Positions 1-41,692 of a DNA stretch of 64,000 nucleotides are shown one piece after another. Position 1 is the first letter of the stretch. The number at the start of each line of letters is the position of its first letter. The translations under genes and the position numbers were made by a program. This DNA is from a phage. The notes under the pieces were generated by a model. It ran no database searches. It saw only the letters and a program-made list of their open reading frames with translations, and was not told where the DNA came from. The stretch is taken from the sequence record PZ256263.1. One strand, given 5' to 3'.

Positions 1-92
1 AGCCGCTCCGCGCGCGTTTCCTAAAAAGGGGGAGTCCTCAAATAAAAAAGGGTTATTGGCAATGCCTTTACACCTCCTTCAACGTTCCAGCG

Positions 93-557
93 TTTCCCCG
101 TGCCTACTCCCCGTTATTCTTTCCCCGTGTATACTACCCAATACATTACCTACCCGTTTATTTAGTTCCCCTTTAAAGAGTGAGAGAAAGGCTATACTCT
201 GATAAGGCACAATCATAACAGGTCTAATAATACCGTATTGTTACCATTCAGCTCCCCATAGTTTGAGTGTAAATAGTTTCAATAGTAATAATTATGAGTG
301 CAATAATGATGTATGTATTAATTAAGTGGATGATTGTATTTCTTTTAATTGTTTCTTTTATTACTTTCTTTTTCAGCGTGCCTTTGTGAGTACGAAGTAC
401 GAACGTCTTTGATGTTTGAGTTATACAATTATTTAAGTGGTATATTATTACCGCACTATCTTGCATGTTTCCCCGTGGTCTGTCCTGCGGTTGTGTGTTC
501 CCCGTTCGTCCTGGTCTGTTGGTCTGCTACCCGTAGCGCCAGCGTAACACCCGTAGG
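93..557. repeat. Cluster of short CCCCGT-containing direct repeats (TTTCCCCGTG at 93-102, 120-129, 468-477; variants near 107, 154, 498, 529, 549)
   Basis: Direct reading of the non-coding region at the window start; no convincing ORF/RBS. Possible terminal, packaging or origin-associated iterons. Confidence 0.45.
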
Positions 558-671: not shown

Positions 672-699
672 TTGACAGGCTTTTCCTTTATTATATAGT
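672..699 (+). promoter_or_regulatory. Host sigma70-like promoter (TTGACA, 16-nt spacer, TATAGT)
   Basis: -35 TTGACA at 672-677 and -10 TATAGT at 694-699, AT-rich upstream, about 45 nt before the first gene. Confidence 0.6.
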
Positions 700-2936: not shown

Positions 2937-3107
2937 AAGGTGATTGTATACCTTACTCCCTTTTAGCTCATTGTGATGCGTTATAGGCCGCTTGTTATCG
3001 CTTTACAAGCCTTTTCCTATGATGTATCACGTTCGCCCGCTCTTTTACCTTCCCATAGTGAAAAAGTTTAAAATATTTTGTTTTACCCTATTGCATCCCT
3101 CACTGAT

Positions 3108-3116
3108 TAATGTATA
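3108..3116 (+). promoter_or_regulatory. TAATGTATA motif (candidate promoter for the phage sigma factor)
   Basis: Exact TAATGTATA; the same motif recurs upstream of several genes. No ORF lies immediately downstream, so function here is uncertain. Confidence 0.3.
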
Positions 3117-41223: not shown

Positions 41224-41692
41224 AGAACCTGTAGTTTATAAAGACTCTATCAGAGATCAATATAATGAGATGTTAAAGAAACAAGCTGATTCTAATCTTC
41301 GTTATCAGAGGATAGTAGAACAATCTAACTTTAAAGGTTTACTTGAATGGTAACTTATATCCTTTACTTCTTAGCTTTCTTAGGAATAGTCTTTTTATCT
41401 ATTATTCTTGAATTTGGTTTAAGTAAGTTAGTTAATTATTTAGGTAGTAAGTAATTAATATTCTTTTAAATAGAGAATCAAAGTCCCTAGGAGTCCCCAC
41501 AACCTAAATCAAGGATTCCTTAATTCTCTATTTTTATCTCGCAGGTGGCTCCTGCCCTTCGGTACTTGCAAGGGATTCTATGAATTGCCCAATGTACAAG
41601 CCTGCAAGAGTTATTCTCTAACTCTACCTTATATACATTACCGTTAGTGAGTATCTACTACCAATAAAATGATACTTATCTTACAAAAGTTA

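Follow-up and report, generated by a model that had tools for sequence, protein, structure and literature searches.

Same-strand CCCCGT repeats at the end of a phiEco32-like coliphage genome are most likely a packaging signal

The window analyzed here, a 64-kb stretch of phage DNA, opens with an array of short CCCCGT-type repeats which lies in and beside the direct terminal repeat (DTR) of a Kuravirus genome. The array is real and under selection, as is evident from the excess of copies, their strand bias, the conservation of their cores and the replacement of the motif by others in particular lineages. We regard it as a genuine, if rather unremarkable, signal at the genome end that most likely serves DNA packaging. 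In its specific form, this reading holds that the repeats are a short-repeat array of the T7 type that surrounds the concatemer junction, serving cutting and packaging directed by the small terminase subunit (TerS); we infer the binding and packaging roles, and give the whole an even chance of being correct. A first-pass annotation of the same DNA had proposed a terminus, a pac site or an origin at 93-557, and a pac-type role is the best supported function that we infer for the repeats.

Homology confirms that the window starts where the genome of a Kuravirus (phiEco32-like) coliphage physically ends, with its predicted DTR at positions 1-193. The first 3 kb are 90-96% identical to Kuravirus coliphages, in reverse-complement orientation, and base 1 is aligned to the very last base of the phiEco32, SU10 and YF01 genomes. 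In the records of phiEco32 and YF01 the first 193 nt recur exactly as the last 193 nt, a repeat that the YF01 record annotates as a direct terminal repeat. A DTR of 193 bp has been published for phiEco32, SU10, Paul and YF01; that of phiEco32 was mapped experimentally, and those of SU10, Paul and YF01 were confirmed from reads with sharp termini (PMC4281155, PMC9965538, PMC6787329). The alignment of base 1, taken with the 193-nt homology to these mapped relatives, therefore places the start of the window at a genuine genome end, which bears out the initial suggestion of a terminus. No second copy of 1-193 occurs within the 64-kb window, the genome being ~77 kb long with its other end outside the window. 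The short repeats had also been offered as a possible terminal repeat, which is right insofar as one cluster of them sits inside the DTR and wrong insofar as they are not themselves the DTR.

Features of the DTR known from relatives can be located in the window (Table 1). The internal repeat pair is the one published for SU10 as CCCTTTTTTA, 10 nt and CCCTTTTTTA again, 21 nt from the end (PMC4281155), and the conserved DTR positions numbered ~130-170 in another publication correspond to ~24-64 of the window (PMC9965538). At 193^194 (a caret marks each boundary) the window reads TAAAGAGTGAGAGAAAGGCT^ATACTC, and the conserved inner boundary ending in GAAAGGCT^A is present. The outer boundary in relatives (2981-3006 of locus L006) reads GAGTGGGGCT^AGCC. 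Both boundaries carry GAGTG-N(0-6)-G[GC]CT^A, a candidate consensus for the terminase cut site.

Table 1. Features of the genome end, in window coordinates.
Feature	Position	Strand	Description
DTR	1-193		aligned end to end with the repeat of phiEco32, SU10 and YF01; right-end copy in phiEco32 orientation
Internal repeat pair	22-31, 43-52	+	TAAAAAGGGG and TAAAAAAGGG; most conserved part of the DTR, invariant alignment columns
A1	93-102	+	TTTCCCCGTG, inside DTR; core invariant in 8 aligned genomes
A2	107-115	+	CTCCCCGTT, inside DTR; semi-conserved, shifted in Nieuwekanaalvirus relatives and absent from KarlSchell
A3	120-129	+	TTTCCCCGTG, inside DTR; core plus GTGTA invariant
A4	150-158	+	CTACCCGTT, inside DTR; CCCGTTTATTT invariant
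Inner DTR boundary	178-194		GAGTGAGAGAAAGGCT^A; presumed terminase cut site making the other genome end
AT-rich spacer	265-467		20-28% GC over 271-390; invariant blocks 288-324, 363-379 and 427-455
B1	468-477	+	TTTCCCCGTG, outside DTR; in all Kuravirus and Nieuwekanaalvirus relatives examined
Companion motif GGTCTG	477, 513, 521 (477-526)	+	three copies, cluster B
B2	498-506	+	TTCCCCGTT, cluster B
B3	527-536	+	CTACCCGTAG, cluster B; from 20-nt local duplication
B4	547-556	+	ACACCCGTAG (ACCCGTAG at 549-556); kept in all clades including SU7-like
Sigma-70 early promoter	672-699	+	TTGACA-16-TATAGT, near-consensus, ahead of first gene (744-1616); not part of the array

The decamer TTTCCCCGTG, originally noticed at 93, 120 and 468, is exact at these three plus-strand positions and occurs nowhere else in the 64 kb; in shuffled sequences 0.05 matches are expected, and a count of three was not attained in any of 100 shuffles. 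The shorter CCCGT variants mentioned along with it are likewise present (A2, A4 and B2 to B4). Plus-strand CCCGT occurs 31 times in the window, and eight of these copies, all in the same orientation, fall inside 93-557 (Poisson p ~3e-10 for enrichment over the remaining window), with at most two in the densest other span of 465 nt. The longer form TTCCCCGT is found four times in 93-557 and not at all in the rest of the window, and the first 1000 nt hold no minus-strand copy (ACGGG).

The repeats do not form the single cluster of 93-557 that had been drawn around them. They stand as two clusters of four copies each, A (93-158) and B (468-557), separated by a conserved AT-rich spacer. Cluster A lies inside the DTR, and cluster B lies ~275 bp inboard, outside the DTR and upstream of the early genes. 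The consensus of the array is yyCCCGTk. The fourth copy of cluster B was supplied by a 20-nt local duplication (529-548, ACCCGTAG...ACCCGTAG) that is confined to the window and its closest relative, ev_rybdy3. Cluster B is accompanied by GGTCTG, which in relatives is often found 1-2 nt past a CCCGT copy (CCCGTnGGTCTGY) and which neither the cluster inside the DTR nor the one beyond it contains. In the GGTCTG region phage EP335 has ATCTGTT, the same as the T7 RNA-polymerase pause core; as there is no gene for a phage RNA polymerase, the match is probably a coincidence.

The cores of the repeats are conserved beyond their surroundings. In an alignment of the window with seven relatives, three of them only ~67% identical in this region, CCCGT cores occupy aligned positions even in the ~67%-identical genomes, and in the DTR no variation is seen at 17 of the 20 core positions, compared with 72 of the 173 others (Fisher p 2.4e-4). 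Three copies of cluster B are kept in every aligned genome, the fourth being limited to the window and ev_rybdy3. Three to five further copies on the same strand make up a third cluster, 120-600 nt beyond the far side of the DTR in the left unique end, on the way to the terminase genes. This cluster was found in ev_rybdy3, phiEco32, YF01, KarlSchell, KBNP1711, NJ01 and others; it was seen in junction-spanning assemblies or by joining the ends of phiEco32 or YF01, as the far side is not part of the window. Across the concatemer junction the whole array spans ~1.1 kb. All 13 copies in ev_rybdy3 are on one strand (binomial p 2.4e-4), and nine Kuravirus and Nieuwekanaalvirus junctions hold no ACGGG within 900 nt on either side. 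Each of three SU7-like junctions has a single, distant reverse-strand copy 829-870 nt upstream. An IMG/VR scan with a conserved 24-mer of the DTR returned known genomes only, and a full-text literature search for the motif together with phiEco32, within a scope that did not extend to the original phiEco32 descriptions (which may mention the repeats), gave nothing relevant.

The motif itself changes between lineages. In the SU7-like clade (AnnaHegner, MLP3, 101114BS3 and ECBP2) ACCCAT replaces CCCCGT, and CCCGT is retained in a part of cluster B alone. CCCGT is missing from the Privateervirus phages of Proteus and Cronobacter, which carry in the equivalent non-coding region 10-13 copies of CATAGT on one strand and none on the other; their putative TerS is ~50% identical. 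In Proteus phage P59 and Cronobacter phage 009 the element reads yCATAGT, with 10-12 one-strand copies within ~440-490 bp of a ~1.7-kb non-coding region upstream of putative terS and none on the other strand in 9.3 kb. Privateer-type phages have been reported with "novel end types", and the yCATAGT array may therefore mark their unmapped termini.

A candidate for the protein that reads these motifs is encoded nearby. The concatemer junction lies ~1.3-1.5 kb upstream of putative terS, with the repeats flanking the presumed cut sites. The name TerS rests on gene position and on a published HHpred annotation of the phi32_6 homolog, which matched no Pfam family and no PDB sequence. Among the E. 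coli phages the protein shows 91-100% identity, and a scan of IMG/VR based on it gave 11 loci. At residues 33 and 36, in the basic segment GKFxKGNKFGRPKGSR, all CCCCGT genomes have N/N and the two ACCCAT genomes examined have E/T; N33E and N36T are the sole clustered TerS changes in that segment. This co-variation of TerS and motif is suggestive only: it goes back to what is essentially a single evolutionary change in the E. coli phages, and with the CATAGT of Privateervirus counted in, the independent events are few.

The arrangement closely resembles that of T7. The heptamer CCTAAAG occurs three times inside the 160-bp terminal repeat of T7, eight times at 175-332 and twice before the right repeat, with no copy on the other strand; these arrays are reportedly the SRL and SRR of Dunn and Studier's work of 1983, with CCTAAAG as their heptamer. 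Both T7 and Kuravirus have a short exact terminal repeat, an element of 6-8 nt that lies on one strand inside the repeat and on both sides of the junction, and arrays that come after the genome end but before the first strong early promoters of the host type. They also share the presence of similar sequences at both repeat boundaries, the T7 boundaries having TA^TCT..ACAG in common. SP6 and phiKMV follow the T7 pattern too, with strand counts at their left ends of 12 versus 0 for CTTAGT and 10 versus 1 for CCTGGC, respectively. Against the arrays of T7, SP6 and phiKMV, the Kuravirus array is therefore another case of a known architecture with an unrelated motif, and as yyCCCGTk and CCTAAAG are unrelated, it is an analog of the T7 array and not a homolog, the likeness being architectural only. 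It also differs in layout: the T7 array begins 15 nt past the repeat, whereas cluster B is ~275 nt away across conserved AT-rich DNA. To our knowledge, the function of the T7 arrays is not firmly established. Kuravirus phages are without a phage RNA polymerase (PMC4281155), and the polymerase-dependent steps of T7 maturation therefore cannot apply as such. The small terminase of T7, gp18, is said to recognize pacB in the concatemer (PMC9860248).

Packaging sites of other phages offer a second comparison. Short elements repeated on the flanks of a cut site characterize lambda cosB, P1 pac and SPP1 pac: cosB has R1-R3, P1 pac has seven TGATCA/G hexamers around the cut, SPP1 has pacL and pacR, and T7 and T3 have pacB. 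Like the Kuravirus array, these sites consist of lineage-specific short repeats that flank the terminase cut, within ~2 kb of the terminase genes in the concatemer. Unlike them, the Kuravirus array surrounds two cut sites 193 nt apart instead of one and is more widely spread, over ~1.1 kb.

These likenesses suggest a model in which replication would yield head-to-tail concatemers and TerS (the phi32_6 homolog), as an oligomer, would bind the oriented repeats. Bound TerS may then position the large subunit to cut at both boundaries (..G[GC]CT^A), and the two cuts would leave each packaged genome with a repeat at either end. The position of cluster B weighs against packaging: it is 275 nt from the nearest cut site, past the AT-rich block, and also suits an origin or a regulatory region.

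Several conserved elements lie between the DTR and the first gene. The block at 288-324 (ATTATGAGTGCAATAATGATGTATGTATTAATTAAGT) is, across all three E. coli clades, better conserved than any other non-coding block in this interval, and holds only near-matches to the phage-sigma motif AATGTA. The invariant block at 427-455 (AATTATTTAAGTGGTATATTATTACCGCA) includes TGgTATATT, a look-alike of an extended -10 element that would fire rightward into cluster B and that a consensus promoter scan did not detect. The early promoter that had been placed at 672 is indeed a near-consensus sigma-70 promoter, invariant in the aligned relatives and annotated as a promoter in the records of 4E8 and SU7. A phage sigma (gp36) promoter was also considered, the consensus of which is AATGTA (PMC12276001). 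This sequence occurs at 142-147 (minus strand) inside the DTR, directed toward the genome end, and at the other end it would face the late genes; as a conserved feature it was rejected, the same positions reading AATGAA in phiEco32. Elsewhere in the window, matches to the extended form tAATGTAtA at 3109, 30196, 34677 and 41694 (+) and at 41639 and 51532 (-) are likely gp36-dependent middle or late promoters.

Two further observations concern the annotation and composition of the window. Small early proteins of 87 and 121 aa (1642-1905 and 2465-2830) bear the RefSeq and PHROG labels "polymerase" and "terminase", which look like propagated mislabels because neither has Pfam support. GC skew flips from positive to negative at ~48 kb, presumably the point where gene orientation reverses.

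Among the other explanations, a replication origin would have the CCCGT copies act as iterons for a phage or host initiator and the AT-rich DNA at 271-390 as an unwinding element, with forks running outward from the junction in the directions of the two divergent units of transcription. Two GC-richer repeat clusters do enclose an AT-rich block (20-28% GC), the spacer holds invariant non-coding blocks, and gene orientation and GC skew diverge at the junction. The region also resembles the lambda ori and plasmid Rep iterons in having direct repeats on one strand by an AT-rich block in non-coding, divergently transcribed DNA. However, the Kuravirus unit is much shorter than those iterons, with a conserved core of 5-8 nt, its irregular spacings of 12-16 or 27-32 nt are not those of 17-22-nt iterons in helical phase, and its copies extend into the DTR and across the junction. 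Positions 1-800 contain no DnaA-like box (with up to one mismatch) and no IHF consensus, no initiator gene is recognizable among the neighboring proteins, and the GC skew is confounded with the direction of transcription. The equivalent junction architecture is not known to be the primary origin of T7, and the T7 annotation shows only promoters at the comparable region. We therefore judge an origin unlikely, and less likely than a pac-type site on account of the short core, the spacing and the lack of DnaA and IHF boxes. An association with transcription is somewhat harder to credit still, and we think it improbable that a phage DNA-binding protein on the repeats controls the early promoter at 672 and late promoters across the junction, for instance in early shut-off. 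Such a role fits cluster B only, which lies 115-200 nt upstream of a strong early promoter in a divergent intergenic zone; most copies are 500-1200 nt from that promoter, in the DTR and beyond, none overlaps its -35 or -10 hexamer, and the arrays of T7, SP6 and phiKMV track the terminal repeat and not a particular promoter. About equally improbable is that the repeats and GGTCTG are signals for primase, helicase loading or nicking that aid the copying of the DTR or the making of the single-stranded tails by which genomes are joined into concatemers. The strict one-strand orientation would suit this, and TGGTC, which resembles the recognition site of T7 primase, occurs three times in cluster B. 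Primase sites are trinucleotide-based, however, and need no conserved 7-10-mer, and GGTCTG is missing from the clusters inside and beyond the DTR. Maturation of the T7 type does need the terminal repeat to be duplicated (PMC4281155).

That the array is debris of slippage and duplication in fast-evolving non-coding DNA, devoid of function, is very unlikely. One copy (527-536) did arise by a recent 20-nt duplication shared only by the window and ev_rybdy3, but the cores are far better conserved than their flanks and keep aligned positions in genomes that are ~67% identical, their orientation is uniform, and independent lineages maintain arrays of different motifs. A gene for a small protein or a structured RNA over the repeats is hardly credible. 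Positions 56-570 do contain open reading frames of 45-73 aa, and in some GenBank records hypothetical proteins are annotated in this region; yet no frame of at least 45 aa in 1-743 is kept across relatives, in agreement with the initial view that the region holds no credible genes, and the indels are not multiples of three. An Rfam scan of 1-1000 at E values up to 1 gave no match. When 455-570 and 60-193 were folded as single strands, the z-scores for both strands ranged from -1.0 to +0.4, hence no hairpin or RNA signal in these segments, and a terminator-like hairpin at 473-490 was rejected, as it is not conserved in the diverged clade. Protection from RecBCD by Chi-like sites was also rejected: in the same orientation at both ends, the repeats could protect only one of them.

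Under the packaging reading, the array is a concrete candidate for the packaging signal of podophages of the C3 morphotype, a group whose mechanism of replication and packaging the authors of the SU10 study call unknown (PMC4281155). For this phage, the genome end and the 193-bp DTR are now fixed, which matters for getting its orientation and annotation right, and the ~12 conserved cis elements should not be deleted when phiEco32-like therapeutic phages are engineered or minimized. Arrays like those at the T7 ends reach beyond the Autographiviridae. It is a tentative and still doubtful proposition that one-strand arrays of hexamers or heptamers in and beside short terminal repeats are a general, lineage-specific cis element of podophages with T7-style maturation, and their role could be other than TerS binding, such as duplication of the repeat or the handling of ends at ejection. 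If the element is general, the Kuravirus family, with ~100 genomes and natural switches of the motif, would be a good system in which to settle its function.
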